From Nanobdellota archaeon (GTDB lineage: Archaea; Nanobdellota; Nanobdellia; Pacearchaeales; GW2011-AR1): 52,734 nucleotides of DNA. A program made the position numbers and the translations under genes. Under the pieces are notes generated by a model, which worked only from the letters and a program-made list of their open reading frames with translations, was not told where the DNA came from and searched no databases. Positions within the stretch are counted from its first letter, which is position 1. Every line of letters begins with the position of its first letter. The DNA lies in contig JBBSYO010000020.1 in NCBI GenBank assembly GCA_038045185.1, positions 1-52,734 of the forward strand. Direction: 5' to 3'. This document shows positions 3,643-42,702 of this stretch, in pieces.

Positions 3643-4287
3643 TCAAGGTTTATAGTTTTGTAGATATTCTATCTTAGGTAAAAAAGGATATTTTTTTAGC
3701 AAGGTAGAATCATTATGAACCTCTTTCAATAGATCATCTGTCCAGTGTTTTTTATCTGCAGTGATGATCGTTAATCTGTTATTATTATGTTCCTGAACTG
3801 CAGAAGCAAGAGTTTGGGCGTCAGAGTCATTAGGACTAAGCCAAGTAAACAAACAGCTTTTAAGATTAAAATCTATTTGACTAACCGGAATTACCACTGT
3901 ATCAATATAATTTTTAATAAAATAGTTTATTCTAGCTTGCAATAGATTAAAGATATTATTAACATCTTCTATAAATTTCTTTTTATCTTGGCTACTTTCA
4001 TACCCAAAAATTAACCTCGTAACAATTAACTTATCCTGCGGGAAAAGTATTTTAGACTGTTCACTAGAAAACAAATCGTAATTACTATCTTGAATTTTTT
4101 GGTTAAATTCAAAGAGTATTGCTTTTTGTCTTTTCAGCCATTTTGGAAGATTTACACTTACTATGTAGTCGCATAACAGAAAAGAATCTTTTTTGTTATC
4201 TACGAATAATTTTGCTCTTTCTTCTAAAGGATGTCCAAACGGCATACAAAAATAAATCGGAAGATTCATATCTAAAAAATATTTCAT
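3643..4287 (-). CDS. PIN-like domain protein (divergent, with insertion)
   Basis: N-terminal YFLDMN acidic strand. C-terminal NDSDAQTLASA...LTIITADKKHW matches the PIN C-terminal half pattern (D..A.A ... T.D..F/W). Overlaps the upstream wHTH gene by 1 nt. Confidence 0.4.
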   Translation of the reverse strand: MKYFLDMNLPIYFCMPFGHPLEERAKLFVDNKKDSFLLCDYIVSVNLPKWLKRQKAILFEFNQKIQDSNYDLFSSEQSKILFPQDKLIVTRLIFGYESSQDKKKFIEDVNNIFNLLQARINYFIKNYIDTVVIPVSQIDFNLKSCLFTWLSPNDSDAQTLASAVQEHNNNRLTIITADKKHWTDDLLKEVHNDSTLLKKYPFLPKIEYLQNYKP

Positions 4288-5348
4288 TACTCATTCTCCA
4301 ATCCTTCAAGAATTACCTTTTGGATATTCTCTGAAGAGTTATCTTTCGAAATCTTTATTTCGAATGGATTTGTTTCTTGCGCAACAGATTCTAATTCTTC
4401 GATATAGGACTTATAATTCATTTCCTTAAAATTGAGATTCAATTCTCTTATTTGTTGAAACAATTGTTTATTATCTTTATCAATAAATTCTTCCGAATCT
4501 TTAAATGAAGTAAAGGTTGTAAGAGTATCCCAAAGCTGATTCAATGTACCCTTAATTATCTCTAAATTCTGAATTTCATTTTTTTTGTTTAATAGAGCTA
4601 TTTGAGAATTGCTAATGAAATTTTCAAAATCGAAATAAAACTTTTCTAATTTTAATGGATAGTTCAATGATAAATCTAACAATGCTCTTTGAATGTCTGC
4701 GTTTATATCTTTATTTGTGTCCTTATTTATTTTGTGCAGTAAGAATAATCTTGCTAAATTTTCCTTAGCCGAATAAAACTTCATGTCATATTTTTGATAT
4801 TGATATTCTCTCTCTTGGTAAGCAATACCTGTATGTTTTTTATCTTTCAATATTTCTTTAATACACTTAATAATATCTAATTTTTCTTTAGGTTCTTCAA
4901 TCATACTCAAGATGTTTTGATTACTTGAATCAAAACTGGCACAGGTAGTCATGCCATAATGAAAGTTTAAAATAGGAAGATTAAGTTTGCAAGATTTTAT
5001 CACGTCTACGGCTATTTTTTGCAGAGCCGTTTTTGATAAGTCTGTCCCCTTTTCTTTTTTCCATTCTTTTTCAATTTCACTTAAAATATAAAGAGTTTTT
5101 GTCCTTATTTCTTTACTAAATGGAATACTATAATATACGGGATCATCAGTCCTTCTATAAACTTTCATTTTATCGGTACTTAAAATTTCATTCACCGCAC
5201 CGTCTTCTTTTAGTTTTTCTAAATAACTATTTGTTGTTGGCCAGTTAGAACCAACTTTATTTGCGATCTCGTTAATTCCCTTAGGTCCTTCAAATAGGAA
5301 ATCCAAAATTTCTTTTTTTATCTGGCTGGATGTTTTTCTAATTGTCAC
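4287..5348 (-). CDS. winged-helix (MarR/ArsR-like N-terminus) protein, 353 aa, otherwise unknown
   Basis: N-terminal ILDFLFEGPKGINEIANKVGSNWPTTNSYLEKLKEDGAV resembles a wHTH. Coupled to the downstream PIN-like ORF. Confidence 0.45.
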   Translation of the reverse strand: MTIRKTSSQIKKEILDFLFEGPKGINEIANKVGSNWPTTNSYLEKLKEDGAVNEILSTDKMKVYRRTDDPVYYSIPFSKEIRTKTLYILSEIEKEWKKEKGTDLSKTALQKIAVDVIKSCKLNLPILNFHYGMTTCASFDSSNQNILSMIEEPKEKLDIIKCIKEILKDKKHTGIAYQEREYQYQKYDMKFYSAKENLARLFLLHKINKDTNKDINADIQRALLDLSLNYPLKLEKFYFDFENFISNSQIALLNKKNEIQNLEIIKGTLNQLWDTLTTFTSFKDSEEFIDKDNKQLFQQIRELNLNFKEMNYKSYIEELESVAQETNPFEIKISKDNSSENIQKVILEGLENE

Positions 5349-5500
5349 AAGAAATCACCCCTTTTCATAGCTATTTAACCCTTTCTTTGTTTATAAAACT
5401 TACTAAGGTAGGCGATATACTTAACAATCCTTGAACAACAAAGTTTAAATACCCTTTATTGTTCAGAACCAAGGCTTTCAAAAAAGGCTAAAAAAATAAA

Positions 5501-5752
5501 ATGACAATATCTCGTAAAGTTAAGCGCGTCATCGATGGAGACACCTTTCAAACATACAGGAAAGTAAATGGAAGCAACTATGTTAGACTTCCGGGAGTAA
5601 ATGCTCCTGAGTTGCATCAGTTTGGAGGCAGACAAGCCAGAGATAGACTAAAGCGACAAATTCAAGGCAAGGTTGTAACGTTGCAACCTGTTGGCAGGTC
5701 ATATAATAGGGTAGTTGCGAGGGTCAGACAGAATCGGAGGCTTGTTAGATAA
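5501..5752 (+). CDS. miniature staphylococcal-nuclease (SNase/thermonuclease)-like protein
   Basis: VIDGDTF...VRLPGVNAPE...GR..NRVVARV follows the SNase core pattern (V.DGDT, RL.G.DAPE, YGR). Only 83 aa, so the usual C-terminal helices are absent. Confidence 0.6.
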   Translation: MTISRKVKRVIDGDTFQTYRKVNGSNYVRLPGVNAPELHQFGGRQARDRLKRQIQGKVVTLQPVGRSYNRVVARVRQNRRLVR

Positions 5753-5940
5753 TGGTTCAAAAATTATTTGGATTAGGTTTAGGAGCAACAGGAACAGCCG
5801 CAATATTGATAGTGGGCGGAATACTGGTCACCCAATTTGCTTCAGAGGGTTTAGGGGAATTTGCCATATTTGGGGGAATCATGTTAGCGTTAATCTTTGG
5901 AGGGTTAGGTGTTTTAGGCATTCTAAGGAGGTTGCTTTAA
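5752..5940 (+). CDS. small two-TM glycine-rich membrane peptide
   Basis: 62 aa with two hydrophobic G/A/L/I-rich segments. The start overlaps the stop of the SNase-like ORF (taATGg). Confidence 0.4.
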   Translation: MVQKLFGLGLGATGTAAILIVGGILVTQFASEGLGEFAIFGGIMLALIFGGLGVLGILRRLL

Positions 5941-6195
5941 ATGATAGAAGAGAGAAAAGCAGAGGAGCTTATAGATGACCGAAACAAGTGGAAAATTTAT
6001 TTTGATTTAGAAATTCCAAACGCTGGATTAAGCATAAATAATAGAGGTGATTCAAGTGTTTTGGTTAAATTTACAATTAATCGCAAAGAGAATAATCGTT
6101 TATCTAATGAAGATATTGAGAAACTAAAGAACGATTTGAAAGATTTGGGAAAATTCAGAATAGTTAAACAAGGAAAAGAGTTATTGGAGAAATGA
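5941..6195 (+). CDS. hypothetical soluble protein (84 aa)
   Basis: ORF starts the nucleotide after the preceding stop. Charged, no motif recognised. Confidence 0.35.
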   Translation: MIEERKAEELIDDRNKWKIYFDLEIPNAGLSINNRGDSSVLVKFTINRKENNRLSNEDIEKLKNDLKDLGKFRIVKQGKELLEK

Positions 6196-6196
6196 A

Positions 6197-6388
6197 ATGC
6201 CTGGGGATGTAAACAATAAGATAGTTATTGGATTAGAGTCAACAATATTTTTAGTCTCTTTAATAATAGTCATCTTGCATAAGGTAGGAAATTTGTTTAT
6301 TCCGTGGGTCACACCCATATCTTGGTTAATTTTCTTAGGGACAGTTGGTTATTTTATAATTAGGATGATACAGAATATTAACCGTTAA
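6197..6388 (+). CDS. small two-TM membrane peptide
   Basis: 63 aa with two hydrophobic helices. Starts 1 nt after the preceding stop. Confidence 0.4.
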   Translation: MPGDVNNKIVIGLESTIFLVSLIIVILHKVGNLFIPWVTPISWLIFLGTVGYFIIRMIQNINR

Positions 6389-7695
6389 TTACTAAAACTC
6401 TCTTGTAAAACTGACTCCACCAGCCTTTCCGAATTTTCTTGGTTTTCTTTAACTTGTTTTTCAAGTTCATCGCACAAAGCCATTAGCGTGTCGACTTTTT
6501 CAACGATACGTTTTTGCTCGGCAAGGGGCGGAAGCGGAACTTTTAGATTGCTTAGTGCAACTCCATTAACGTTTGGTTGTCCCGTGCCCATAGATTCTTC
6601 AAATAATTGTTGCCAATACAAACTAGAACCGAGAAATAACTTAACGTACGCGGGATTTATTGTCTTATTCGGAATTGCTCTAATCAAGTACGAAGCGAAA
6701 ACAGCTTTAACGTTGACATTCTTGACCATATAGGACTTTCCAATTGTTCCTCCGGTTCGGGCAATTAAAATATCGTTTTCGTTTAATAAGTATTTTTCAG
6801 ATTCTGAATTATCTATTTGACAACTTGGAACTTCTAACCAGTTAACTTTATCATTTTGAATATCTGTTATTCTCAACAGCCTTATGCCCTTTGTATTGTG
6901 GACTGCGGAAGCAGTATAGCCGTAATGAATTCTTTGGCAAACCTCCCCTAGTTTCGTCCATTCCCATCCCTTCGGCAACCCATAAGGCTTTTCCTCATCA
7001 GAGATTGGAGCAAGTGGCTTATCATTTCTGATCTTACCATCTTTGATGAGTCTGTCTTTTTCTGTCTTAATTTTCTTTAACAACTCTGACGCTGGCTCGT
7101 CTTGCGGGTCTTGCTGAACAAGCTTGCCTTGCACGGCGTCTTGGAGGATGCGCTGACGGAGTTTGGAGATATAAGATTCGTTTAAGTTATCAATCTCGTC
7201 TAATTTGGTTACTTTTTCAGAAATAGAATTTATTTTATTTCTGATTTTTACTTGCATCTCTAAATCAGGCAATTTTATCTCTAACGGAAGAAATTTATTA
7301 GGTTTTAGCTCTGTTTTAATTCCGCCTTTAATCTGGCTATTTATTGCCTCTTTGAAATTTTTACTTTTTAAGAAAGTCTTGAAGTATTCGATGTCTATTC
7401 TAGATTCATCAAACAAATAAGCTGAATAATGTATTGTGGCCAAAATGTCTTCTTTACCTTGATAAACTGAAACTGCCCCTTTCTCAACATTAATACCAGA
7501 AATTACCAAATCTCCTTTCTTTATCAATATCATATCAGTGTTTGTTGGCTTATCTGTTAAGTGTATTTCTCCTGAGAAATCAATTTTGTTTAACCTTCTC
7601 AAATTCATTCTATTTGCTTCTAAGGGTTTTATTCTACTTTCTCTTTCTTTTAAGAATGAGGAAATTTTAATTTTCTTCCAATTGAACATTGTCAA
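6385..7695 (-). CDS. hsdS: type I restriction-modification specificity subunit (HsdS)
   Basis: 436 aa with two variable halves separated by conserved helical spacers. The C-terminal PLPPLAEQKRIVEKVDTLMALCDELE and central LPDLEMQVKI match HsdS conserved regions. Confidence 0.85.
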   Translation of the reverse strand: MTMFNWKKIKISSFLKERESRIKPLEANRMNLRRLNKIDFSGEIHLTDKPTNTDMILIKKGDLVISGINVEKGAVSVYQGKEDILATIHYSAYLFDESRIDIEYFKTFLKSKNFKEAINSQIKGGIKTELKPNKFLPLEIKLPDLEMQVKIRNKINSISEKVTKLDEIDNLNESYISKLRQRILQDAVQGKLVQQDPQDEPASELLKKIKTEKDRLIKDGKIRNDKPLAPISDEEKPYGLPKGWEWTKLGEVCQRIHYGYTASAVHNTKGIRLLRITDIQNDKVNWLEVPSCQIDNSESEKYLLNENDILIARTGGTIGKSYMVKNVNVKAVFASYLIRAIPNKTINPAYVKLFLGSSLYWQQLFEESMGTGQPNVNGVALSNLKVPLPPLAEQKRIVEKVDTLMALCDELEKQVKENQENSERLVESVLQESFSN

Positions 7696-7735
7696 AAAAC
7701 TCCATTATTAAAAATATTAAATAATATTTTCATCT

Positions 7736-8095
7736 TCAGATTTCCTTCAAAGATAATCTTTGAGTTTTTTCCATTTTAATTAAGTCTGTGATTTCTTTAT
7801 CAACTATGCCTTTAATTATTGCAGAATTAAATCCCATGTAGTTTATCATTGAATACTTGTTGTAAATGTCTTTTTGTTTCATTAAATCAATTAGATCTGT
7901 TTTGTCTTCTGGATAAACTACTTTATCATATTCTTTAATTGAACATTTCATCTTTGAGCCAAACAAAAGACTTGTGTTCTTTTGTTTTGCGAGTTCAATA
8001 ATTTTAGTTTTTAGCTCTTCTTCTTTTGCTTCTATTTCTTTCTTTAAAGATTGGAGCTTTTCATATTCATCAACTAAACCATTGTCATTACTCAT
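7736..8095 (-). CDS. hypothetical protein (119 aa, N-terminal coiled coil)
   Basis: ORF in the hsdM...hsdS operon. 8-nt overlap with the upstream ORF and 40-nt gap to the hsdS start. Confidence 0.4.
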   Translation of the reverse strand: MSNDNGLVDEYEKLQSLKKEIEAKEEELKTKIIELAKQKNTSLLFGSKMKCSIKEYDKVVYPEDKTDLIDLMKQKDIYNKYSMINYMGFNSAIIKGIVDKEITDLIKMEKTQRLSLKEI

Positions 8096-8585
8096 TTTTA
8101 TCCTTATAAAATTTATCTAAAGCCATCTTTCCAAATTTAGGATTTTTTTTGATTTCTTCTTCAATTCCCTTAATATGTTCGTCCATTATTTTTTGGTGCA
8201 TTACAAATCCTAAGCCAAATAAGTAATCTGCAGTCTCTTTTTTACTTAAATTTTTAACTTCTTTCTTAACATCATTCCATATTTTGTTATCAAATATCTC
8301 TCTAGCTATGGAAAATAACTCATCGTCTAATTTTGAAATTTCTTCTTCTGTATCCTCGCCGTAGATTTCTTTATGCATCTCGGCAGGGGTCTTGTTTGTG
8401 TCTGTTTGCTTTCGTTCATTATTGTACCAATTCATGAAGTCGTTCATTTGCTTTTCTATTTCTACTGATGTTTGTGCTTCTTTATTATTTTTAAGATATT
8501 CTTCAAAAGCCATTTCAATTTCCCTTTTTGCTGGTTTGAATGCGTCTCTTTCTTTATTTTCTTTATTGTTCATGTTAGTAGTCAT
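8088..8585 (-). CDS. hypothetical charged protein (165 aa)
   Basis: ORF in the hsdM...hsdS operon; no motif recognised. Confidence 0.4.
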   Translation of the reverse strand: MTTNMNNKENKERDAFKPAKREIEMAFEEYLKNNKEAQTSVEIEKQMNDFMNWYNNERKQTDTNKTPAEMHKEIYGEDTEEEISKLDDELFSIAREIFDNKIWNDVKKEVKNLSKKETADYLFGLGFVMHQKIMDEHIKGIEEEIKKNPKFGKMALDKFYKDKNE

Positions 8586-8614
8586 TTTTGTTGAAATTTG
8601 AAGGTATTTTATAA

Positions 8615-9496
8615 TTATCCGTGGTCAATTTTCCCCTCATATTTGAAGATATGGGCAAACTTGGCATTTTCACCAATTAATAATTTCAATTGTTCTCTAA
8701 CCCTTGACTCTGTTTCTCCAGAAGTAATAATTATATCATTAAAAACTGCAAAATAACCTGTGTTTACTTTTAATTCTAAAAGCCTTTTTCTTATTTTTCT
8801 TGCATTTGACTTGCTTAACTCTTGATGATAAACGCCCGTTAGATTAGGTTCTTTTTTTAATAGTCTATGTATTTCATCCCAATTTCTCATGCGATTATTC
8901 TCATTCTTTAAATAAAATCTTAGCAGTTCTTCGCTAGATTCTTCTTTCTCATTTAGTGGTTCATCTAAAGATTCAATTAATCCAAACTTGCTTTTTGCTT
9001 TAATATAATCTCTAGATAAAGCATCTACCATTCCCCTTCCAAATGTCATGTTATACCCGTTTAAAATACTTGAATAAACGATTTTTCCACAGAATGGAAA
9101 AAGAATTGTTTTTGCCATATACGGTTCAAATGGCAAAATATCCCTTATTTCGTCTTGCAACCCATAAACATGATATGCTTTTGATTCGTCGCCTAAGAAA
9201 ACAGATTTCTCTTTTTCATGCAAGATGTAAAAATCTCCTTTAACCAGTTTTTTCCATTGACTCACTATGTTTAACTCGGTTTGATTAAATCTTAACGGAT
9301 TTTCTTTAACAAATTCATCAACCATGTGCGGGTAACTAGATAATTTATCATCAAGTCTGGCTACCTCTTCAGCATATTGCCCATTAAAATCTGGAGTTGT
9401 AAGATTCTTTATTATATGGAACTTTTTATTTATGAAATGATATAATCCGTCACGTAACTTATAAAATAACTTAACTTCTTCATTGGATAGTTTCAT
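8615..9496 (-). CDS. hypothetical protein (293 aa)
   Basis: Largest embedded ORF in the hsdM...hsdS operon. 4-nt ATGA-type overlap with the upstream ORF; no motif recognised. Confidence 0.45.
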   Translation of the reverse strand: MKLSNEEVKLFYKLRDGLYHFINKKFHIIKNLTTPDFNGQYAEEVARLDDKLSSYPHMVDEFVKENPLRFNQTELNIVSQWKKLVKGDFYILHEKEKSVFLGDESKAYHVYGLQDEIRDILPFEPYMAKTILFPFCGKIVYSSILNGYNMTFGRGMVDALSRDYIKAKSKFGLIESLDEPLNEKEESSEELLRFYLKNENNRMRNWDEIHRLLKKEPNLTGVYHQELSKSNARKIRKRLLELKVNTGYFAVFNDIIITSGETESRVREQLKLLIGENAKFAHIFKYEGKIDHG

Positions 9497-9876
9497 TTAA
9501 TCACCTTATCCAATTTTAGTAGCCTTCTATATTCTTCATTTATTAAATCCCACCAGTTTTCTGCAGTGTCTACTTGTTCATCTTCCCTTGTAGAAAGCCA
9601 ATAGGTTTCAAAATTATAGGCTCTGATTTCTCCAATATAAATTATTTTATTACTATTTAATACGGCATAAATAGTAGCGATTGCCGGTGCGGGCCAGTCA
9701 ATACAGTCATCAAGTTCGCTTTTATCAATGCTATAACAGACATATAATCTTTGTTTTATCTTTTTTGTATTGGGTAGTTTAGGCACATTTTTTAATAATT
9801 CTTCTGCCCTACTCTCTTTTAATGCCCATCTTTGTAAACTTCTTGCTCTCTGAAGACTAATTTTATATCGGCTCAT
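9493..9876 (-). CDS. hypothetical protein (127 aa)
   Basis: ORF in the hsdM...hsdS operon; no motif recognised. Confidence 0.4.
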   Translation of the reverse strand: MSRYKISLQRARSLQRWALKESRAEELLKNVPKLPNTKKIKQRLYVCYSIDKSELDDCIDWPAPAIATIYAVLNSNKIIYIGEIRAYNFETYWLSTREDEQVDTAENWWDLINEEYRRLLKLDKVIK

Positions 9877-9885
9877 TTTTACCTC

Positions 9886-10347
9886 CTAAATAATTTCCCA
9901 TTCCCAATAATCCTCCATATATCTAGTATATCTAAATAGGTCAAGTTCTTTTGCGTAATTTAAATATTTTTTATAGTCTCTTTGCTGTAAAAAATATGAG
10001 ATCTGTGCTGCAGAAATAGTATTATCAAATGTTTTCTTAATAGTAATAGAGTTGTTAAAGTTTTGCATTGCCATCTTTTCATTAGTATTAAATAAAAGTA
10101 GACCCATTAGATAATAGGCTTCCCAATGGTTTGACCATTTTTTGATAATCTTCTCCGTTAACTGAAAATCTTCTTTTTCTTTATTAACATGTGAAAGTGC
10201 TCCTGCTTTAATCAGAAGAGCATCTATGTTTTCAACGTCTTTTTTAAGAATTTCATTGCATAATTCTATGGCTTTATTCTCATTTTCTGAATAATTATGA
10301 TAATATCCTGCTTTATTTAGTAGCTTAGAAATATTTTTGTCATCCAT
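9886..10347 (-). CDS. TPR-like helical repeat protein (153 aa)
   Basis: Repeated A/Y/L-spaced helical pairs (KAIELCNEILKKD...ALLIKAGAL..., WEAYYLMGLLLF) suggest TPR. 8-nt overlap with the upstream ORF. Confidence 0.4.
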   Translation of the reverse strand: MDDKNISKLLNKAGYYHNYSENENKAIELCNEILKKDVENIDALLIKAGALSHVNKEKEDFQLTEKIIKKWSNHWEAYYLMGLLLFNTNEKMAMQNFNNSITIKKTFDNTISAAQISYFLQQRDYKKYLNYAKELDLFRYTRYMEDYWEWEII

Positions 10348-10597
10348 GTTTTATTTCTCCTAACATCTTCCAGAGATTATCATCTATTGTTTTGTCTTTT
10401 TTATTTTCTTTTATCGACTTTATTATTTTATCATAGAAACTAGGATAATTCACTTTTATCCTGTTTAGTTTATCTTTAATGTGTTCTAGTTTACATTGAT
10501 TTGAACAAAATAACAATGCTTTTTCATCCGAGAATTGAGGCGATAGCCAGATGCCTTCGTTTGCTTGCTTTTTGCAGGTTTTACATGTTTCACCCAT
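10340..10597 (-). CDS. TRASH/YHS-like zinc-ribbon protein (85 aa)
   Basis: C5-x2-C8-x22-C31-x3-C35 fits the TRASH spacing C-x2-C-x19-22-C-x3-C. Starts 2 nt after the hsdM stop. Confidence 0.45.
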   Translation of the reverse strand: MGETCKTCKKQANEGIWLSPQFSDEKALLFCSNQCKLEHIKDKLNRIKVNYPSFYDKIIKSIKENKKDKTIDDNLWKMLGEIKHG

Positions 10598-10599
10598 TC

Positions 10600-12036
10600 T
10601 TATTTTTCTCCTTGAATTTGACTAATAATTTCTTGAGTTCTTTTGATATTTGCTTGTATTCTTTCAATAATCTCTTCTTTAGAAAGCTCCCTTTCTGCTT
10701 CTGGTTTTGTGGGGTTGTTTATGTCCAAATTATAATTTCTTTTGATGATTTCATCTTTTGAAACCTTCCAGCATAAATGTTTAAATTTTTCATTTTCGCG
10801 GTTTGTCCACCATTCTTTCTCTAATTGAAACTCTTCATGACGAATTGGTTTTGTTTTATTATAAGTTACGGCGTCTTGGGGCAATGGATGCTCAAAGTAC
10901 CACACGTCTTTTGTTCCTCGTGAGTCTTTTTCGAAGAACAAGAGGTTGGTACGAATACCGGTGTAGGGGCTGAATACTCCATTGGGCAGACGTACTATAG
11001 TATGAAGATTAAATTCACTTAGCAACTTTTCCTTTATTCGCGTCTTTACACCCTCCCCAAACAAGAAGCCGTCAGGCAAAACTAGACCGCACTTCCCTCC
11101 ATCACGCAAGAGCTTCATAATAAGAACGAGAAACAAATCGGCTGTCTCTCTTGTTTTAAACTCGGCAGGGAAGTTGTTTTCGATACCGGTTTCTTCAGCT
11201 CCACCAAACGGAGGATTAGTGACCACAATATCGACCATATCTTTTGAGGTGTAATCTATTATAGGTCTTGATAACGAGTTATCATGGCGAATGTTAGGTA
11301 CTTCAATATCATGTAAAATCATGTTAGTCATACCCAACAAATGAGGCAAGGGTTTCTTCTCTATTCCCCTTATAGTCTTCTCTAGAATTTTTTGTTCTTC
11401 TACACTCTTTACATCTTTCTTAAGATGGTTAATAACCGATATAAGAAAGCCACCCGTTCCACAGGCAGGGTCCAGTACGATGTCTCCTAATTGAGGGTTA
11501 ACCATGTCAACGATGAATTGGGTAACAGGTCTTGGAGTGTAAAATTCTCCTGCGCTTCCCGCACTTTGCAACTCTTTTAAGATTGTTTCATAAATATCGT
11601 TGAATAAGTGTCTATCTTCAGCGCTTGTAAAATCAATTTCATTTATTTTGTTAATGACTTGGCGAATAAGGATGCCTTTTTTCATATAATTGTAGGCGTC
11701 TTCAAAGACTTGTTTTACAATATATCCCCTTTGGTCTGTCTTTTCATCAAGCTTCAGATTTTTTAGGGTTTTGAATAGATCATCATTGATAAAATCAAGC
11801 AGTTCGTCTCCTGTTATTCCTTCGGGATTCTCCGCCCACTTTCTCCACCTAATTTTTTCTGGTAAAGGACTTTTGTAGTTTTCATCTTCTGCTTCCCTCT
11901 CTTTTTCCATAGAGTCAAAAACTTTCAAGAAGATCATCCAAACCATTTGAGAGATACGTTGAGCATCTCCATCTACTCCTGCATCTTTACGCATGATGTC
12001 TCTTACTGATTTTACTATGTTGCCTAGATGAGCCAT
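10600..12036 (-). CDS. hsdM: type I restriction-modification N6-adenine DNA methyltransferase (HsdM)
   Basis: 478 aa. Motif I DPACGTGGFL, motif IV VVTNPPFGG, and an HsdM N-terminal helical domain. Confidence 0.92.
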   Translation of the reverse strand: MAHLGNIVKSVRDIMRKDAGVDGDAQRISQMVWMIFLKVFDSMEKEREAEDENYKSPLPEKIRWRKWAENPEGITGDELLDFINDDLFKTLKNLKLDEKTDQRGYIVKQVFEDAYNYMKKGILIRQVINKINEIDFTSAEDRHLFNDIYETILKELQSAGSAGEFYTPRPVTQFIVDMVNPQLGDIVLDPACGTGGFLISVINHLKKDVKSVEEQKILEKTIRGIEKKPLPHLLGMTNMILHDIEVPNIRHDNSLSRPIIDYTSKDMVDIVVTNPPFGGAEETGIENNFPAEFKTRETADLFLVLIMKLLRDGGKCGLVLPDGFLFGEGVKTRIKEKLLSEFNLHTIVRLPNGVFSPYTGIRTNLLFFEKDSRGTKDVWYFEHPLPQDAVTYNKTKPIRHEEFQLEKEWWTNRENEKFKHLCWKVSKDEIIKRNYNLDINNPTKPEAERELSKEEIIERIQANIKRTQEIISQIQGEK

Positions 12037-12058
12037 AGATAAAACAGAAAACTCTAAC

Positions 12059-12074
12059 TTAATAACCTTTTTAT
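12059..12074. promoter_or_regulatory. promoter-like motif TTAATAACCTTTTTAT (copy 1 of 3)
   Basis: Same 16-17 nt recur at 18299-18315 and 21686-21702, where they sit about 25 nt upstream of a CDS start and of tRNA-His. Here it lies in the radC/hsdM intergenic region. Confidence 0.45.
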
Positions 12075-12080
12075 CAGAAG

Positions 12081-12752
12081 TTAAAGTCTCTTCTGCTTAT
12101 CCCGCCAACTCCAATACTCTTCTTTCCCTATAACCACATGATCGACAACATTTATGTCAAGAGAGTTGCCTGCATTGATTATTCTTTTTGTAATATCTAA
12201 GTCTTCCCTTGAAGGAGTTGGGTCTCCGGAAGGATGATTATGAATCAAGACTATTTTAGAAGCTGAATTCTTCAGCACGGGCTTGAATATCGTCTTGGCA
12301 TCAAAAATAGTTGAATCCATAGTTCCCTTAGAAATCAACTGCTCGCCGATAATGTGATTCTTTGTATTAAGCATTAAAACAATAAAATGCTCTTGCTTCT
12401 CATCCTTCAATCTATCATGAAACAAATCAAAGACATCCTTGGCACAAGTTATCTTTTTAACTGGGTGTTTGGCTTGTGAGCGCCTCTTGCCTAATTCGGC
12501 CATGGCAAGCAATTGCATAGCTTTGCTGGGACCGATACCTTTGATGCTTTGAAGTTCAACTAAAGAACATTCGAATAACTTATCTATGCCATGTTCTGCA
12601 ATAAGTCGATTTGACATATCAATAACGTTCTCGCCTTTACTTCCTGTCCTCAAGATTATAGCGAAAAGCTCGGCATCGCTTAGCGCTTGCGGACCATGTT
12701 TTAGGAAACGCTCTCTCGGCCTGTTCTGCTTCGGCATGTCATGGATTCTCAT
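12081..12752 (-). CDS. radC: RadC-like JAB/MPN domain protein
   Basis: 223 aa. N-terminal MPKQNRPRERF, an HhH-like IKGIGPSKA, and the JAMM motif HNHPSGDPTPS. Confidence 0.9.
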   Translation of the reverse strand: MRIHDMPKQNRPRERFLKHGPQALSDAELFAIILRTGSKGENVIDMSNRLIAEHGIDKLFECSLVELQSIKGIGPSKAMQLLAMAELGKRRSQAKHPVKKITCAKDVFDLFHDRLKDEKQEHFIVLMLNTKNHIIGEQLISKGTMDSTIFDAKTIFKPVLKNSASKIVLIHNHPSGDPTPSREDLDITKRIINAGNSLDINVVDHVVIGKEEYWSWRDKQKRL

Positions 12753-12782
12753 GGCTATGAATAGAAAAAATAGTTAATAATT

Positions 12783-14045
12783 TTAACTCAATCCCTCATT
12801 TATTTTCTTTAAATTCCAAAGAATAACTTTTTGCAATGTTTGCAGGAGTTTTTCATCTTCTCTTTTTTTTGATCCTTTTGTATACCCCATATATTCATCC
12901 AATAATCCAAACGGGATGTCGAAAATTGGAATGCCTCTTGATTGCAATAAATGAAATGTTATTAATCTCGTTGTTCTGCTGTTTCCATCTGCAAACGGAT
13001 GAATGTGCTGGAATTCATTGTGGAAATAAACGGCAAAATTTAAAATTTCCCTAATAGATGATTTTTCTTTTCTGACAAACTCATCATACTTCTCAAATAA
13101 AGCATCTAATTCTCTTTTGATATTCTCTGCTTTAGTGATTTTAAAATCAGGATTCCCTTTAATATAGACTTCATCTGTTCTTATTTTGCCTGCAATTTTC
13201 GGAACATTTCTCATAGCTATTCCATGATAATTAAGAACAGACGCGATATTCAAAACCTTCTTTTCCGCGCTATCTTTCAGCATTTGCAGGATTGCTTCCT
13301 GATAATTCTTTACTTCATCAACATCCAGGCTCTTTAGATTGCCCGGGATAACCTTGTCCTGCAGTATTTTGAAAGTCTCTGATAATGTTATAGGATTTCC
13401 CTCTAATGAAAGGCTATGATAAACAAAAGAAATTTCAAAATCCCTTACAACTTTTCTGTATCCAGCCTCATCTTTTTTTCTTAATCTCTTAAAAATATTT
13501 AATTCCCTTTCTATCTCTTTGCTGTAAACATGGGTGCTTTCTGTTATAACTTCATGCTTATAACCAAAGTAAATAAGAAGATTGTTCAAAAGGATATTAT
13601 AGAATATCTTTGCCCTCAAGGGTTTTCTTGAAATAATAAGGACCAATCCAAATCTGTTTAATATTTCCAGGTACTTTTTAAAAGTTCTTGGGTGAGTATC
13701 CGCGTCTTTGGGGGTAATCTCCTCTTTTTGCAAAGCTTTGCTCAAAAATGCCGCAAAATTCTTGTCAAGTAAATAATTGTAACTAACATTGTTTTTAAGA
13801 CAATGCTGAATTATTCCATATAAGATTTCTGCCTTTTTGTTCATGTCTGCTTCAAAGCCATATTCAGTTTTTCTAAGGAGACCAAGTGCAACCAACTCTC
13901 TAAGCTGTTTATGTATTGCGTGATAATCTCCCTCAGATTTATTAAACCCCCTAACAACATCCACAGGCTTCATTGGGGCTCTGTTCTTATAGATTAATTC
14001 AAAAATGTCATATTTGGTGACCATAACAATACAGACTCTTTTCAA
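12783..14045 (-). CDS. Fic/DOC family protein with N-terminal wHTH-like region
   Basis: Fic motif HPFADGNSRTTR (HxFx[D/E]GNxRxxR). 420-aa ORF; the true start may be the internal MVTKYD. Confidence 0.85.
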   Translation of the reverse strand: MKRVCIVMVTKYDIFELIYKNRAPMKPVDVVRGFNKSEGDYHAIHKQLRELVALGLLRKTEYGFEADMNKKAEILYGIIQHCLKNNVSYNYLLDKNFAAFLSKALQKEEITPKDADTHPRTFKKYLEILNRFGLVLIISRKPLRAKIFYNILLNNLLIYFGYKHEVITESTHVYSKEIERELNIFKRLRKKDEAGYRKVVRDFEISFVYHSLSLEGNPITLSETFKILQDKVIPGNLKSLDVDEVKNYQEAILQMLKDSAEKKVLNIASVLNYHGIAMRNVPKIAGKIRTDEVYIKGNPDFKITKAENIKRELDALFEKYDEFVRKEKSSIREILNFAVYFHNEFQHIHPFADGNSRTTRLITFHLLQSRGIPIFDIPFGLLDEYMGYTKGSKKREDEKLLQTLQKVILWNLKKINEGLS

Positions 14046-14117
14046 CTTTAAAAAGCTTTCTATTCGGCATAAAAAGTAACATATTTTGTAACAAATAGTG
14101 CTAAATGTATCTATTGT

Positions 14118-14192
14118 CGTGCTTCAAAAAACGCTCTCTCGGCCTGTTTTGCTTCGGCATGTCATGGATTCTCATGGCTATGAATAGAAAAA
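14118..14192 (-). repeat. displaced radC 5' end (promoter-proximal region plus 19 codons), remnant B
   Basis: Minus strand reads MRIHDMPKQNRPRERFLKH and then diverges to a stop. It differs from intact radC at 6 nt in 5 codons, all synonymous. The upstream ggctatgaatagaaaaa is identical. Confidence 0.85.
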
Positions 14193-14633
14193 CTAATTAT
14201 TTGAATTCCTTTTAAGAGTAACCCTTTCTTCTTTTTGGTCAAAGATAATGACAAACTTATCAAAAAAGCCTGCTCTCCCAAGCAAAACAGGGATTTCCTG
14301 GCCGTCAAGGACAATTCCTTTGTTCAAGATAACTTTTACAGGCAGGTCAAATTTATATGTTTCATGAGGCTTTCCAATTTCTAAGAACAGTTTAGACTGC
14401 ACTGCTGGAACTTTTCCTCCGATACCAGCCGCATCTTCCTTTTTGCCGCTTAAATCAACCCCTAATAATTCTGCTACTTCTTCGGGTATTGCTGAGACAT
14501 CTGCTCCAGAATCGAGCAGAGCTACAAAAGTATATTTCCCGCCTGCCCCAGATAAGGTAACGGGAATTGAAGGAGACTTTACTTCTATATTATTTGGTCT
14601 TTTTACACGTTTGTAACGAAAGGCAAGGCTCAT
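14193..14633 (-). CDS. retropepsin-like (clan AA) aspartic protease
   Basis: 146 aa with ALLDSGADVSAIP (D-S/T-G-A active-site signature). Confidence 0.7.
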   Translation of the reverse strand: MSLAFRYKRVKRPNNIEVKSPSIPVTLSGAGGKYTFVALLDSGADVSAIPEEVAELLGVDLSGKKEDAAGIGGKVPAVQSKLFLEIGKPHETYKFDLPVKVILNKGIVLDGQEIPVLLGRAGFFDKFVIIFDQKEERVTLKRNSNN

Positions 14634-14843
14634 TTAGAAGATCATTGTTTCTTCACTTGGTACGCGGGCAATAATAAATTTCTTCCCGCCCGATAGAGTC
14701 TTTGCTCTCTCGACAACTTCCTTTAAGTTTCTGCCGTGTGCAAGTATTCTGTTTTCAGCTACAGCTATCCACTCCCCGGCATATTTACTAATATCGGTTT
14801 CCATAAAATAATTATAGGCAAGTTCCTGGGATGATTTTGTCAT
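14634..14843 (-). CDS. small partner protein (DUF5678-like by recollection)
   Basis: 69 aa with GEWIAVAENRILAHG...IIARVP. Its stop abuts the start of the aspartic protease ORF. Confidence 0.4.
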   Translation of the reverse strand: MTKSSQELAYNYFMETDISKYAGEWIAVAENRILAHGRNLKEVVERAKTLSGGKKFIIARVPSEETMIF

Positions 14844-14994
14844 ATTATTCTTTCTTAATGTCCTTATTTAAAGGTTCTCAAGCCTTCCAAGAAGTAGCAA
14901 CAAAGACAACTTTAGAAGAATACCTCCTTTTATTCATAGTATCAAATATACTCATTAATATATAAAGATTGTTCTTAACTATTGCTCGAGAATA

Positions 14995-15020
14995 TCATGG
15001 ATTCTCATGTGATTGATTAG
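14995..15020 (-). repeat. displaced radC 5' end, remnant C (MRIHD plus upstream-like bases)
   Basis: tcatggattctcatg is identical to the radC start region. The minus strand reads MRIHD and then ILEQ-stop. Confidence 0.5.
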
Positions 15021-15328
15021 AGGTTCATCTCCTCAAGCTCCTGGCTGACTAGGGATTCAGCTTCTTCTAACTGGAAAGCAACATCGGGATATTTTTTAAT
15101 GCTCTTATTTTTGAAGAATTCAATCGCAACCCTCTTTATATCCTGCTTATCTTCCTCATTCCAGTTGAATTCCTTCGCGCTTTTAATCGCAGAAGCCCGA
15201 TACTCGCTTTCCTCATAGAGCAAATGGCTCATTGACTCAGGCTTGTTTGTGTAACGAGCAAGCATCTTATGCAATACAACGTTGCCTATGATTTTCCCAA
15301 GCGTCTTTAAAGCACTATTTTTTCCCAT
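15017..15328 (-). CDS. hypothetical protein (103 aa)
   Basis: ORF overlapping the 3' end of the upstream nucleotidyltransferase ORF by 22 nt; no motif recognised. Confidence 0.35.
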   Translation of the reverse strand: MGKNSALKTLGKIIGNVVLHKMLARYTNKPESMSHLLYEESEYRASAIKSAKEFNWNEEDKQDIKRVAIEFFKNKSIKKYPDVAFQLEEAESLVSQELEEMNL

Positions 15329-16128
15329 TTTGACTCGAGAATCTCCTTATCTGTTTTTTCAGACAAGTTTCTTATATACATTAGTGCCCGCTTTTTTTCC
15401 AATTTAGACGCGCTGTTGCTTTTCAGCTGTTTCATAAGCCTCTCGCCCAGTTCGTTCCTGACGCTCTCATTTAACATTTTGTTATCCACAATTTTCCTTA
15501 ATAAAAGCCTAACAAGCATTACATTTCTGAGCGATTGGTAAATTTCCCTGCCTGCTGAATCTTCGTCATCAATGTCGCTCCAGTCCAGCTTCATCCGAAG
15601 GTCTAATTTTGACAGATCTGCCTTTGGGAGAAGATTGAACGTGCCGTGAATTGCCTTAAAATCCTTTAACTGGTAAATTAAAGAAGGGCTATGGGAGTAT
15701 TGGGACAAAATTGAATCTTTCGAGTAAAGTTGCATATCAAGGTTAAGGGCTGCTTTTTTCCCTTTTTTCTCAATCGTTTCTATCAACTCTCTCTTTTTGC
15801 TCTTTGGCAGTTCTTTCTTTGTCACTACAATCACATCTATATCATTATATTCCTTATAATTGCTCTGCACCGCAGAACCGCAGATAATTATCGAATCTAA
15901 GTTAGGCACGTTATCTAATACAATCTTTTTTATTTTATTCTCAATTGCCCTTGCTTTTTGGTTGTATTCTATCCTATTCAGGATTTCGCCTGTATTTATT
16001 TTTCCTATCTCCAGCAGCTTGGGTCTTATGCTCTTGCTGAGAATATTTGCTTCATTCTGAGTAAGACTAACCCCACTAAGTTTCTTGGCGATTATTTCAT
16101 TCTCCCTTTCTGTCATTATCTTAACCAT
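15307..16128 (-). CDS. nucleotidyltransferase-fold (MNT-like) protein with helical C-terminal region
   Basis: IICGSAVQSNYKEYNDIDVIVV matches the minimal NTase signature GS-x(9-11)-D-x-D. Confidence 0.6.
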   Translation of the reverse strand: MVKIMTERENEIIAKKLSGVSLTQNEANILSKSIRPKLLEIGKINTGEILNRIEYNQKARAIENKIKKIVLDNVPNLDSIIICGSAVQSNYKEYNDIDVIVVTKKELPKSKKRELIETIEKKGKKAALNLDMQLYSKDSILSQYSHSPSLIYQLKDFKAIHGTFNLLPKADLSKLDLRMKLDWSDIDDEDSAGREIYQSLRNVMLVRLLLRKIVDNKMLNESVRNELGERLMKQLKSNSASKLEKKRALMYIRNLSEKTDKEILESKWEKIVL

Positions 16129-16170
16129 ATAATATCTTATAGTATTAAGTGCTATTTAAAGGCCTCTATC

Positions 16171-16371
16171 TTAGGATTCTGCTTCGGCATGTCCTTGATT
16201 CTCATTTTTCTTCTTTTTCTTAAGAATTATCTTGCCATCTTTAGCATGTATATCAAGATAATCCCCTTCTTCAATGCCTGCTTCTCTTATTATTAAGGGC
16301 GGAATATTAACCATATATTTGTAATAATCCTTATTTTTGTGCTTGCGCAGGAATCTTTTTTGCACTTTCAC
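16171..16371 (-). CDS. AbrB/SpoVT-type (MazE-like) small DNA-binding protein
   Basis: GTG start. YMVNIPPLIIREAGIEEGDYLDIHAKDGKIIL resembles a swapped-hairpin AbrB domain. The 3' end runs into radC remnant D. Confidence 0.5.
   Translation of the reverse strand: MKVQKRFLRKHKNKDYYKYMVNIPPLIIREAGIEEGDYLDIHAKDGKIILKKKKKNENQGHAEAES
16177..16205 (-). repeat. displaced radC 5' end, remnant D (MRIKDMPKQN)
   Basis: 29 nt with 2 mismatches to the radC start region (ttctgcttcggcatgtccttgattctcat). Confidence 0.6.
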
Positions 16372-16447: not shown

Positions 16448-16651
16448 GTGAAAAAGAAGTTTCTTGGATTCGGATGGAAAAGCAAAGTTGCATTAAAAAG
16501 AGTAACTTATAGTATTTCAATTAACAAACTTGTTGCAGAAGGAAATTGCCTCGAGAAAGGCCAGGAGCTATATTGCTATCTTGCAGAAGATGAAAAAAAC
16601 AGGCAGATAATTGTCATTTACTTAGACGGAAAAAAGAGGGACAAGAATTAG
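16448..16651 (+). CDS. AbrB/SpoVT-like small protein
   Basis: 67 aa, GTG start. SISINKLVAEGNCLEKGQELYCYLAEDEKNRQIIV resembles an AbrB-type fold. Divergent from the 16171-16371 AbrB-like ORF. Confidence 0.4.
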   Translation: MKKKFLGFGWKSKVALKRVTYSISINKLVAEGNCLEKGQELYCYLAEDEKNRQIIVIYLDGKKRDKN

Positions 16652-16676: not shown

Positions 16677-16747
16677 GGAATGCGGATTTGCCAGCCGGAC
16701 TCTTATCAAGTATCGGCTGTCGGGTTCAACTCCCGAGTGTTCCACCA
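16677..16747 (+). other. tRNA-like element: acceptor stem, perfect T-arm, discriminator and encoded CCA; D and anticodon arms non-canonical
   Basis: GGAATGC pairs with GTGTTCC (two G-U). T-arm TCGGG-TTCAACT-CCCGA, then A-CCA. The middle 36 nt could not be folded into standard D and anticodon arms. Confidence 0.35.
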
Positions 16748-16894: not shown

Positions 16895-17248
16895 GTGATT
16901 AAAATGAGTGAAAGCCAATCAAGATATAGTATTGTTGAAAGATTAACCCAGATGAAACTGGATATTATCTCAGAAAAACTAGATTTAGAGGCAGACGTAA
17001 AGCAAAAACAGCAAAAAGTCGAGCAGCTTAAAAAAGAGCTTGCCGATTGGGAGAGCGATATACAGCAAGATACAGAAAGAAACAGAAGATTAAAGAAAAG
17101 AGAAATTGAAAAAACAGATATGGAGAGCGAAAATGCAAAAGAAAGAAAAAATGCTAAAGAAGAAGCCTTAAATGAAAAGCTAGAGGCTATTGACAGAGCC
17201 TTAGAAAGAATTGAAGAAATAAGCAAAACCTCTCCAACAAATCAATAA
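16895..17248 (+). CDS. coiled-coil protein (117 aa)
   Basis: Heptad-rich E/K/L sequence. The antisense ORF 16858-17226 is judged a shadow. Confidence 0.4.
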   Translation: MIKMSESQSRYSIVERLTQMKLDIISEKLDLEADVKQKQQKVEQLKKELADWESDIQQDTERNRRLKKREIEKTDMESENAKERKNAKEEALNEKLEAIDRALERIEEISKTSPTNQ

Positions 17249-19038: not shown

Positions 19039-20031
19039 CTAAGACAATCTCTTCATTTCCAGCCAACTAATAAGTTTAGTCTTATCGGGAGGCACATCTT
19101 TCCTTGAATAATATACAAAATCCATTCTTTCATAGCATTTAGGACAATAACAAACTCGTCCTTCAGAAGCTTTTATGGAAATTGATTTTGCTATACTTGA
19201 CTTTAGAAATTTCTTTTTTCTCCTTGAATAAGCGCCGTAATATCTTGCAAGCTTCTGATTCTTTTCTGGAACATGCTGAATAATAGCAGAAATAAAATCA
19301 TGCACAAGCATGATTTTATAGTGTATCTTTTCATCATGATCTTTGTAATAGAATTTAACAGCCTCTTTATTGTAGGCAATTATCCTTGAGTTTGCTATTG
19401 CTGGATGCCGAACATATCTGCCCAAATATCTGGCTAAGCCCTTGCGAGAGGATATTCTATCCTCTCTGACATAAACACAAAAGCCATTAGGATATTTTCT
19501 ATATGCTTCCTCAATAATTCCTTTAGGAAGATATTTCTTCAGTTTTTTGAGGATATTATATTCCCATTTTTTATGCAGAGCATTATATGGAATATAATTT
19601 CCCAACGGAACAAATTTTCCCTGTTCATCAAATCCCCCTTCAGTAACAATAGTATGAACATGGGGTTGATTCTTCAAATCTTTTCCGAATGGATGAAACA
19701 CTTCAATAACTCCAGGAATTAAATCTCTTCTTTTCATATTAGAAAATACTTCTCGAATTGTTTTATATGCAACATCCATCAAAATCTTGTACAGCTTTCT
19801 ATCTTCTTGAAAATATTTCCAGAGCATATCTGGAATTCCAAAGACAAGATGCCTATGGAAGATATTTTTCTCTAATTTTTCAGCTAACATTGATGCCCAT
19901 TGGTCAGCATACCTCTTGCCACAGCAAGAGCATAGCCTTGAATTGCAGCCAAATGGGAGAAATCTATATTCGTTGCAATTCTTGCAATAATACCAAAATC
20001 CTCCTCTGCTTTCATCTTTGCAAGAAAGCAT
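19039..20031 (-). CDS. IS91-family (HUH Y2, rolling-circle) transposase
   Basis: Zn-binding CKNC...CNSRLCSCCG, HUH-type QPHVHTIVTEGG, and Y2-region RYLGRYVRHPAIANSRI and ARYYGAYSRR. Confidence 0.8.
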   Translation of the reverse strand: MLSCKDESRGGFWYYCKNCNEYRFLPFGCNSRLCSCCGKRYADQWASMLAEKLEKNIFHRHLVFGIPDMLWKYFQEDRKLYKILMDVAYKTIREVFSNMKRRDLIPGVIEVFHPFGKDLKNQPHVHTIVTEGGFDEQGKFVPLGNYIPYNALHKKWEYNILKKLKKYLPKGIIEEAYRKYPNGFCVYVREDRISSRKGLARYLGRYVRHPAIANSRIIAYNKEAVKFYYKDHDEKIHYKIMLVHDFISAIIQHVPEKNQKLARYYGAYSRRKKKFLKSSIAKSISIKASEGRVCYCPKCYERMDFVYYSRKDVPPDKTKLISWLEMKRLS

Positions 20032-42006: not shown

Positions 42007-42038
42007 ATTTGATAACACGACTCGGGTTTATATATTTT

Positions 42039-42634: not shown

Positions 42635-42702
42635 TTAGGAACAAGTTTGTATAAATATCTTTCGAGCAAGATTTTTAAGCCCTGAAAACACCCTATAACC
42701 CT

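Follow-up and report, generated by a model that had tools for sequence, protein, structure and literature searches.

DPANN archaea have tiny, strongly streamlined genomes with few recognizable mobile elements, and, to our knowledge, little is established about the route by which they gain accessory and defense genes. A single locus raises this question in concrete form. In a stretch of 52,734 nucleotides (nt) from a Nanobdellota archaeon (assembly GCA_038045185.1, contig JBBSYO010000020.1; the whole stretch is hereafter called the window), the start of the gene radC occurs four times, and three small gene cassettes lie between the copies. How did these cassettes come to lie in front of radC, and why is a piece of the radC start found beside each of them? 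Our answer, held with moderate confidence, is sequential displacement, in which each cassette would have entered by recombination anchored on radC homology combined with one illegitimate join. More broadly, comparison with 112 radC loci fetched from relatives (L-numbers below denote these loci and strain contigs of the same array) indicates that, throughout the Nanoarchaeota/Pacearchaeota lineage, the interval between radC and an AbrB-like gene is a hotspot of insertion. The window represents DPANN chromosomal DNA: it encodes archaeal-type phenylalanyl-tRNA synthetase (alpha and beta), HisRS, RFC, ScpA, and DisA, and every one of the nearest radC loci comes from a metagenome-assembled genome of Nanoarchaeota, Woesearchaeota, or Pacearchaeota.

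Four copies of the radC start

The anchor gene, intact radC (12081–12752, minus strand, 223 amino acids [aa]), matched Pfam RadC (PF04002; E = 4e-43; 146.6 bits, cut-off 22.1) and UPF0758_N (PF20582; 8e-28; 96.8 bits) and scored 242.5 bits against NCBIfam PRK00024/NF000642 (cut-off 180), which places it in the RadC family. A type I hsdM lies directly downstream. The gene's own start, copy A (12695–12786, minus strand; repeat search), comprises its TATA-like box (12774–12786), the 5′ leader, and the first 19 codons from the ATG at 12752. As a repeat unit, copy A spans 12697–12776, and its homology to the radC of L035 begins at −32 (here and below, positions are counted from the radC ATG).

Three displaced copies follow on the same strand. 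Remnant B (14119–14206; repeat search and an nhmmer match at 14206–14118, E = 6e-13) is a displaced radC promoter with the first 19 codons, 91% identical to copy A over 80 nt (14120–14199 in B), and its mini-open reading frame (ORF) reads MRIHDMPKQNRPRERFLKH, then DNRYI, and then a stop, ending at 14101. A first-pass annotation, made from the sequence letters alone, had described these 19 codons and a stop; the A/B repeat reaches further, taking in radC's TATA-like box (about −33 to +57), and B keeps a plausible box of this kind. Remnant C (14979–15009, minus strand) reads MRIHDILEQ and a stop. Only its exact 15-mer CATGAGAATCCATGA at 14995–15009 (MRIHD) had been noticed at first; the copy probably extends, more diverged, to about +27, and the repeat search places it at 14982–15021. 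Remnant D (16177–16205, minus strand; MRIKDMPKQN) shares 27 of 29 bases with copy A and today encodes, in a different frame, the C-terminal end of AbrB. All four copies have ATGAGAATC in common, a 15-nt exact core is shared by A, B, and C, and neither C nor D has the promoter part. The copies thus lie where the first-pass annotation had put them, at a frequency far beyond chance: a 29-mer search (≤3 mismatches) gave three matches against 0.00 expected from the shuffling control, and a 15-mer search (≤1 mismatch) gave three against 0.02.

The divergence between A and B bears on the origin of the displaced copies. Their six nucleotide differences fall in five codons (CAG/CAA, TTC/TTT, CTA/TTG, AAA/AAG, and CAT/CAC) and are, exactly as first claimed, all synonymous; because of this, remnant B is best read as the fossil of a working radC allele. 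By the Nei-Gojobori method (S = 9.7, N = 47.3, sd = 6, nd = 0), the chance that every difference would be synonymous is P ~2e-5 per site and 1.4e-4 per codon. All six differences lie in +27 to +57, while −20 to +26 is identical (clustering P = 0.003), and the copies are therefore mosaic. At the six variable sites, B agrees with L035 at five and the other copy at one, which is suggestive only.

Might the repeat instead be a generic leader shared by unrelated genes? It is confined to the array, with no other site in the window, and a profile built from 23 radC starts and searched with nhmmer matched radC starts or their remnants in the 112 loci, barring one inverted match in L041 at the start of another ORF.

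Three cassettes of minimal size

Pfam assignments agreed with the modules initially read off between the copies (Fic; a small partner and a protease; a nucleotidyltransferase [NTase] and a 103-aa ORF; an AbrB-like ORF). Cassette 3, the Fic module (12783–14118, minus strand), carries a gene of 413 aa with an ATG start (12783–14024; PF02661, 3.7e-14; PADLOC PDC-S04/SoFic), a candidate TATA-like box at 14047–14054, and an operator-like repeat, TGTTACAAAATATGTTAC, at 14076–14093. Cassette 2 (14193–14872, minus strand) pairs a DUF5678 gene (14634–14843; Pfam, 9e-14) with a retropepsin-like aspartyl protease gene (14193–14633; Asp_protease_2, 2e-7; PADLOC PDC-M52B, 4e-6); its candidate TATA-like box lies at 14865–14872. 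Cassette 1 (15017–16160, minus strand) consists of an NTase gene (15307–16128; Pfam NTP_transf_2/Polbeta) resembling minimal nucleotidyltransferases (MNT), with a weak match to the MNT antitoxin 5yep, and the 103-aa partner ORF (orf103; 15017–15328), to which no Pfam family was assigned; its candidate TATA-like box is at 16153–16160. The AbrB/MazE-like gene (16171–16371, minus strand; Pfam MazE_antitoxin, 6e-9) closes the array on the far side. The predicted cargo domains (Fic, a protease matching PDC-M52B, and an MNT-like NTase) are typical of toxin-antitoxin (TA) and defense systems.

All three cassettes, 0.8 to 1.4 kb in size, are oriented as radC. Each has a candidate TATA-like box (TTTAAATA or TTTTTAAA; assigned by eye only) about 27 nt ahead of its ATG and ends with a stop codon 8 to 30 nt ahead of the following radC start. 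Between a remnant and the next promoter, there are 1 to 16 nt of non-coding DNA (cassettes 1 and 3) or about 105 nt (cassette 2, up to remnant C). These edges also bound the homology to the same modules elsewhere: the Fic module is 83% identical at the nucleotide level to that of L100 from 14115 to 12783, i.e., from 3 nt past remnant B to the Fic stop, and the homology of cassette 1 to the L006 module begins at the TATA box, 13 nt past remnant D.

The Fic family is very common and highly conserved in Nanoarchaeota/Pacearchaeota (794 homologues at E ≤ 1e-30, many 80–90% identical). In L113 and L114, the same promoter-operator-Fic unit occupies unrelated surroundings, and no radC fragment accompanies it, which argues that the modules are portable, yet have no specific tie to radC. 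The operator-like repeat upstream of Fic is kept in all genomes with an identity exceeding that of the gene itself; it forms a perfect palindrome (GTTACA..TGTAAC) in L078, and a ~45-nt copy lies on both sides of Fic in L034 (10020–10065 and 11343–11390).

Empty, differently filled, and scarred sites in relatives

In about 25 of the 112 loci, a conserved trio of genes stands beside radC. Besides AbrB (29 matches beside radC), it comprises orf67 (in the window at 16448–16651, plus strand; 27 places by tblastn) and the coiled-coil gene cc117 (16895–17248, plus strand; 19 places). Four lineages (L017, L018, L040/41/42, and L089) have an empty site, with the AbrB stop at −53 to +2 of the radC ATG; the empty state would thus be an AbrB-radC operon. 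In eight other lineages, the same gap holds other cargo: a 154-aa ORF in L037; three reverse-strand genes in L034/35; a helix-turn-helix protein and a DUF6036 NTase in L068; a Schlafen/AlbA_2 protein in L109; seven genes, one encoding a SEC-C protein, in L098; and distant versions of cassettes 1 and 2 in L006/L064 and L081, where homologous DUF5678-protease pairs adjoin radC (inverted in L006/L064). In the last of the eight, L100, a locus without the trio, Fic and a reversed AbrB-NTase pair lie directly upstream of radC. Among the cargo families found in the gap are SLFN/AlbA_2, DUF6036 NTases, AbiEii, PIN, Polbeta NTases, and SEC-C, and cargo in these other genomes lies on either strand. This agrees with the early suggestion of a hotspot for TA- and defense-like cargo. 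It also revises the count of cassettes, which had included AbrB as a fourth: since AbrB abuts radC in empty sites and other cargo fills the gap elsewhere, AbrB is the fixed left border of the hotspot, and the array comprises three cassettes. Remnant D is then the radC start that once abutted AbrB.

Shared cassettes do not follow descent. The L006 versions of cassettes 1 and 2 are 35–69% identical in aa sequence to those of the window, while closer relatives have other cargo or none; we rejected vertical inheritance of shared cassettes, as this pattern requires exchange or loss.

Displaced radC starts are not confined to the window; they have arisen independently in seven to nine other lineages. 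In L035, one lies directly after AbrB (MRIKDLSEQTY and a stop, to +28). L014 has two, one directly after AbrB (to +15) and one at position 6947 (~+21), and L015 also has two (+18 and ~+110), the second of which immediately precedes another pair of NTase and 107-aa genes. A copy to about +85 is found in L017 on the far side of the trio. In L062, a copy to +19 is followed by the new radC start just 65 nt on, with no cargo. L077 carries a copy with its upstream region, MKIKDMPRQNRPRERFVSAGVGALSDS (4461–4543, to +83), directly before an hsdR gene that belongs to a type I system homologous to that of the window; this remnant lies 3.5 kb downstream of the intact radC, and radC fragments may thus also border a restriction-modification (R-M) island. 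Across all events, the breakpoints are +15, +18, +19, +21, +27 to +29 (three cases), +57, +83, +85, and +110, a spread that points to no single crossover point. The ratio of non-synonymous to synonymous change per site between remnant and intact radC is ~0.28 in L017 and ~0.33 in L015, and these remnants, like B, appear to have diverged under purifying selection. The first-pass view of serial insertion into the radC 5′ region, with older starts pushed outward, is supported by these empty sites, alternative fillings, and displaced starts.

Could the repeats instead have arisen by local duplication? The radC promoter and start would then have been duplicated in place by slippage or unequal crossing-over and kept as promoters or leaders, with the cargo arriving separately. 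The plausible TATA-like box of remnant B reads into the Fic module, and gene conversion between copies could yield the identical block from −20 to +26, as such duplication would allow. However, each cassette has its own candidate TATA-like box about 27 nt before the start codon, C and D have no promoter part, and the remnants terminate at stop codons without forming fusions. Genomes with empty sites, moreover, place the cargo exactly between a radC start and radC, the copies derive from diverged functional alleles, and the cargo-free remnant of L062 is close to a refuting case. Local duplication is, in our judgment, very unlikely.

Several further arrangements were seen at related loci. A 221-aa ORF family near the trio (L041, 331–379, minus strand; L006, 7422–8087) begins M(EPL)KIKD[FM]PK[IL]E.PFVR, resembling the RadC N terminus (E = 8.5e-5), which may be a chance likeness or a captured radC start. 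An insert of ~60 nt (GAGAGTTTAGG...CCTGGGCTCGAGTT), the ends of which are partly repeated, breaks the radC of L076 after codon 12 (439–560), and a pseudogene, a scar, or a small element could each account for it. The position of the trio relative to radC also differs among genomes, downstream in some and upstream in others (L004, L011/L103, L047/L049, L083, L093, and L044 compared with the window); its orientation is reversed in L006 and partly so in L081, and in L017 it stands between the radC remnant and radC. The process that displaced radC starts may have inserted or rearranged the trio as well.

A fixed array around a recombining radC

At least 21 contigs encode proteins identical to the protease and orf103 products of the window; they derive from the Hainich wells H41, H51, and H52 and from three further ENA assemblies, and one of them measures 131 kb (ERZ1286166 contig_2419). 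The gene order AbrB-NTase-orf103-DUF5678-protease-Fic-radC-hsdM was the same in 11 of the 11 distinct contigs inspected. An assembly artifact is excluded, because at least 21 independent contigs, assembled separately for different wells and studies, have the same array. Both explanations by which the array could have been dismissed, an artifact or a generic leader, are thus refuted. In seven contigs compared at the DNA level (97.8–99.8% identical), remnants D, C, and B are identical, and cassette number is constant across the inspected strains; therefore, the array is fixed in the population, with no active shuffling. In L118 and L119, the NTase is shortened to 200 aa (2458–3060) and Fic is split into two ORFs (4343–5583), which suggests cassette decay within the population or assembly frameshifts.

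The anchor behaves differently from the rest. The seven strain contigs are near-identical to the window over the ~8-kb locus, and their differences are packed in short patches, mostly within radC. A patch specific to the window covers +162 to +309 with 27 differences, and the 3′ end of radC together with the first bases of hsdM occurs in two or three allele types among the strains. In L116, a patch within the intact radC (+18 to +75, 17 differences, MRIHDIPKDGRPRERFLKHGPEALSD; 6332–6390 in L116) has identical flanks on both sides. Tracts of 60 to 230 nt that are at least 17% diverged thus lie in radC and at the radC/hsdM junction (window 11977–12591) of strains that are 99.8% identical elsewhere, and we conclude from them that radC recombines in short patches with divergent alleles. 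These data suggest that radC is an unusually strong short-patch recombination hotspot in a natural groundwater population. Later patching of the working radC copy, with B left as the fossil, could be a second source of the synonymous A/B differences. Sliding identity was also used to ask if the initial 157 nt of radC had come from outside an L035-like backbone, but the signal proved too noisy for a verdict.

Searches for a recombinase, attachment sites, or a carrier

Pfam searches for integrase or transposase domains covered 40 ORFs of the window and 20 proteins from AbrB-radC or remnant-radC intervals. None was found in the window apart from one insertion sequence (IS)91-family Y2 gene, and none among the 20 interval proteins. 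No IntI-type tyrosine recombinase adjoins the array among the 40 window ORFs; the left flank is AbrB/orf67/cc117. A repeat search found no inverted repeats, attC-like sites, or terminal repeats at the cassette boundaries, which are direct repeats of the radC start, and Rfam at the gathering threshold returned only four tRNAs in the window. The absence of an integrase or attC-like site from the array, as noted in the first-pass annotation, was thus confirmed by Pfam, repeat, and Rfam scans. In a Pfam census of 135 representative clusters of ORFs upstream of radC (≥170 aa), the best 25 families listed included no recombinase, with NTases the commonest of the families listed; on the same best 25 families, no integrase-bearing occupant of the site was recognized among the 112 loci. 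A viral contig collection contained no relatives of RadC or Fic, on which ground viral or plasmid-like carriers were rejected.

Other candidates also failed. The IS91-family Y2 (HUH) transposase gene (19039–20031, minus strand; Y2_Tnp, 1.7e-32, and Zn_Tnp_IS91) lies 2.7 kb off, with the array on its 3′ side, and there is no evidence that it played a role; sequence beyond ~18320 differs from the window in L033/L120, and in L116 and L125 the match continues to at least 18400. Contigs do not break preferentially upstream of radC (ends within 300 nt: 19 upstream, 16 downstream). Sequence shared just past the remnants amounts to no more than ATAG within the array, and at B these four bases are part of the Fic module.

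Several features would nevertheless be accounted for by site-specific recombination in trans, with the recombinase gene located at another genomic site or carried by a helper element. The first 15 to 30 nt of radC would be an attI/attB-like site, non-autonomous cassettes would carry a radC-like attachment (att) site, and the remnants would be attL, in the manner of integrons, cis-mobilizable elements (CIMEs), or integrative mobile elements exploiting Xer recombination (IMEX). The presence of ATGAGAATC in all four copies with the 15-nt exact core of A, B, and C, the ends of the D, C, and L035 remnants within 2 nt of each other (+27 to +29), the clean cassette edges, and the single orientation of the three window cassettes all fit such a system, and integrons are known in archaea, including DPANN (PMC9668308). 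On the other hand, searches of the 52-kb window and of the filled intervals examined turned up no recombinase, attC-like inverted repeats are missing, other remnants break at +15, +19, +57, +83, +85, and +110, and cargo in other genomes lies in either orientation. The Fic module also occurs elsewhere with no radC fragment, the inspected array contigs include no excision or occupancy variants, and the shared first bases carry little information, as they are kept in every radC (M-K/R-I). We consider a recombinase in trans possible but unlikely. A more specific form, in which the radC start is the attachment site of an unrecognized DPANN cassette-capture system that depends on an integrase in trans or on RadC itself, an integron analogue with host-gene fragments as separators and cassettes with their own promoters, strikes us as improbable.

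The cassettes might also be what is left of larger integrative elements (proviruses, plasmids, or islands) that used their own integrase and a radC-mimicking attP, integrated in tandem, and were later trimmed to their cargo. Two points favor this view: the strong streamlining of DPANN genomes and the well-documented tandem accretion, marked by fragments of the target gene, of islands that target tRNAs and gene ends, as with dusA islands (PMC4482086) and tycheposons (bioRxiv 10.1101/2020.12.28.424599). Against it, no leftover pieces of integrase, structural, or replication genes, or similar debris, are present in any of the three intervals, where the spacers measure 1–16 nt and ~105 nt, no integrase-bearing occupant was recognized among the 112 loci (best 25 families listed), and viral contigs contain no relatives of RadC or Fic. 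We assign only a small chance to such decayed elements.

Proposed sequential displacement anchored on radC

With these alternatives weighed, we return to sequential displacement. Three minimal transcription units, each with its own TATA-like promoter, would have been added in turn within the first 17 to 57 nt of radC: first the NTase and orf103, then DUF5678 and the protease, and then Fic. Every gain would have brought or regenerated a full radC start and left the earlier start truncated on the AbrB side, and the remnants, from oldest to youngest, would be D, C, and B. The incoming DNA, from related archaea, would consist of cargo followed by the donor's promoter and the 5′ part of its radC. 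This donor part would pair with the resident radC by homologous recombination, while at the other end an illegitimate join would connect the fragment to the resident gene, a few dozen bases inside it; in a topologically equivalent route, the fragment would circularize and enter by a single crossover. The outcome in either case would be a gain of cargo, an intact radC, and a remaining old, truncated start, probably with no dedicated recombinase involved. Resident cassettes are probably addictive or protective, and if they are, additive events would outlive replacements, which would explain why cargo piles up.

A homology-anchored gain of DNA would require the kind of short-patch recombination observed at radC, and we favor homology-anchored displacement over site-specific integration as the probable mechanism. 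The first-pass annotation had gone further and proposed elements that carry a replacement radC start. Its repeated insertion stands; for discrete mobile elements there is no evidence: the Fic module is found at other places free of radC fragments, the array is invariant in the population, and later gene conversion, as seen in L116, could explain the differences between the copies.

Several observations weigh against sequential displacement. The remnants D, C, and L035 break nearly alike, at about +27 to +29, and the first 9 to 15 nt are exact in all copies, as a site-specific core would also predict. Cassette edges are very clean, running from TATA box to stop with no partial donor genes, where random illegitimate joins predict otherwise. 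Microhomology at the B/Fic joint (possibly AAGC-C-A, compared with L100) is suggestive only. No donor with exactly the same Fic-radC junction (Fic stop, TTATTAAC, promoter, radC) was found, and among the inspected array contigs no strain had fewer or more cassettes, so that no event was caught in the act.

Comparison with known systems

Mobile DNA is known to favor radC in bacteria as well, where transposons of the Tn554 family insert at att554 inside staphylococcal radC. As in the archaeal array, radC is the preferred target, whereas Tn554 carries its site-specific transposase genes on the element and interrupts radC with no regeneration of its start. Phage 21 and e14 insert in icd of Escherichia coli and bring a substitute gene end whose differences from the resident end are mainly synonymous. 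The duplicated end derives from a working allele here too; it is, in contrast, a 3′ end, supplied by a single integrase-encoding prophage in bacteria. Next to integrative and conjugative elements (ICEs), CIMEs accrete in tandem as non-autonomous, att-flanked elements. Tycheposon remnants with partial tRNA repeats occupy Prochlorococcus islands (bioRxiv 10.1101/2020.12.28.424599). Like the radC array, these last two types consist of cargo separated by partial target copies in streamlined genomes, with many segments that have no integrase; unlike it, they can be traced to integrase-bearing parents at the same att and, in the case of tRNA targets, do not use the start of a protein gene. An autonomous parent with an integrase at the radC site was recognized neither in the 112 loci (best 25 families listed) nor in viral contigs.

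Islands and prophages at dusA integrate in the 5′ end of the gene and supply a new one (PMC4482086, PMC8409611). They share with the radC array a targeted 5′ end of a protein gene, a replacement start that keeps the gene intact, and a direct repeat at the far end, and both the distal repeat of the target and a restored radC are indeed present in the window. However, dusA elements are 5 to 170 kb long and encode a tyrosine integrase of their own adjacent to att, with a fixed crossover, whereas the radC cassettes measure 0.8–1.4 kb, no island integrase was found, and the remnant ends vary from +15 to +110. Integrons (PMC9668308) likewise hold short, mostly single-function, co-oriented cassettes at one site and are rich in TA and defense genes; unlike in integrons, no intI, attI, or attC hairpin was found in the radC array, the cassettes, promoterless and expressed from a shared Pc in integrons, have candidate promoters of their own, fragments of a host gene act as separators, and no shuffling was seen.

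In structure, the radC array mirrors the orphan arrays of type VI secretion system (T6SS), Rhs, and contact-dependent inhibition (CDI) genes, and effector-immunity arrays of the T6SS in Vibrio cholerae have been explained by homology-facilitated illegitimate recombination (PMC5361080). In these arrays, too, an intact anchor stands next to displaced, truncated ends beside retained cargo, growth is one-directional, there is no recombinase, and one homologous and one illegitimate join have been proposed. The radC locus has the same hallmarks: an intact anchor, same-strand truncated fragments of functional alleles beside cargo (sd = 6, nd = 0), variable breakpoints (+15 to +110), and recombination with divergent radC alleles. 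The differences are that the displaced pieces of the bacterial arrays are 3′ ends lying downstream, while those of radC are 5′ ends with a promoter, lying upstream; that the bacterial cargo is tied to its anchor as toxin tip and immunity gene, while the radC cargo has no evident link to RadC; and that the host is a DPANN archaeon.

Target-gene fragments that mark accreted islands are therefore already known (dusA, tRNA/tycheposon, and Rhs/CDI/T6SS orphan arrays). New here are the DPANN host, the radC start and promoter as the target, and cassettes that are minimal transcription units, together with direct population evidence for short-patch recombination of the anchor where no recombinase was found. 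A full-text search turned up no mention of radC in any DPANN paper that it listed.

Other features of the window

Between orf67 and cc117 lies a tRNA-like element (16677–16747, plus strand) with a 7-bp acceptor stem, a canonical T-arm (CGGGTTCAACTCCCG), and an encoded ACCA 3′ end but no D-arm; it was called by neither ARAGORN nor Rfam. In its variants in L035 and L116, other 5′ strands preserve the acceptor pairing, with no change in the 3′ trailer CCACCAGCGAAACTT, while in L037 the element is missing; it coincides with a recombination patch between strains. As an attachment site it was rejected, since it borders no cassette and is uncalled by both programs. The type I R-M system of the window is spread over ~11 kb (1303–12036), with hsdR at 1303–3642 (plus strand), hsdS at 6385–7695 (minus strand), and hsdM at 10600–12036 (minus strand), and seven ORFs with no significant Pfam match lie between its subunits. 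Two ORFs with a LAGLIDADG_3 domain sit beside tRNA genes, one (40993–42018, minus strand) next to tRNA-Thr (40942–41013) and the other (42967–43863, plus strand) next to tRNA-Gln (42702–42776), both in a low-GC stretch (0.30 at 41–42 kb).

Implications for gene gain in DPANN archaea

Under sequential displacement, the radC locus would be a fossil record, still legible, of three gains made one after another at a single site, of which relatives show empty, differently filled, and scarred versions. If a dedicated recombinase acts here after all, the array would represent a new cassette-capture system. Otherwise, it suggests that a conserved gene, radC, may serve as a homology handle by which foreign cassettes enter DPANN genomes with no integrase, and that cargo of the TA and defense type may favor additive over replacement events.

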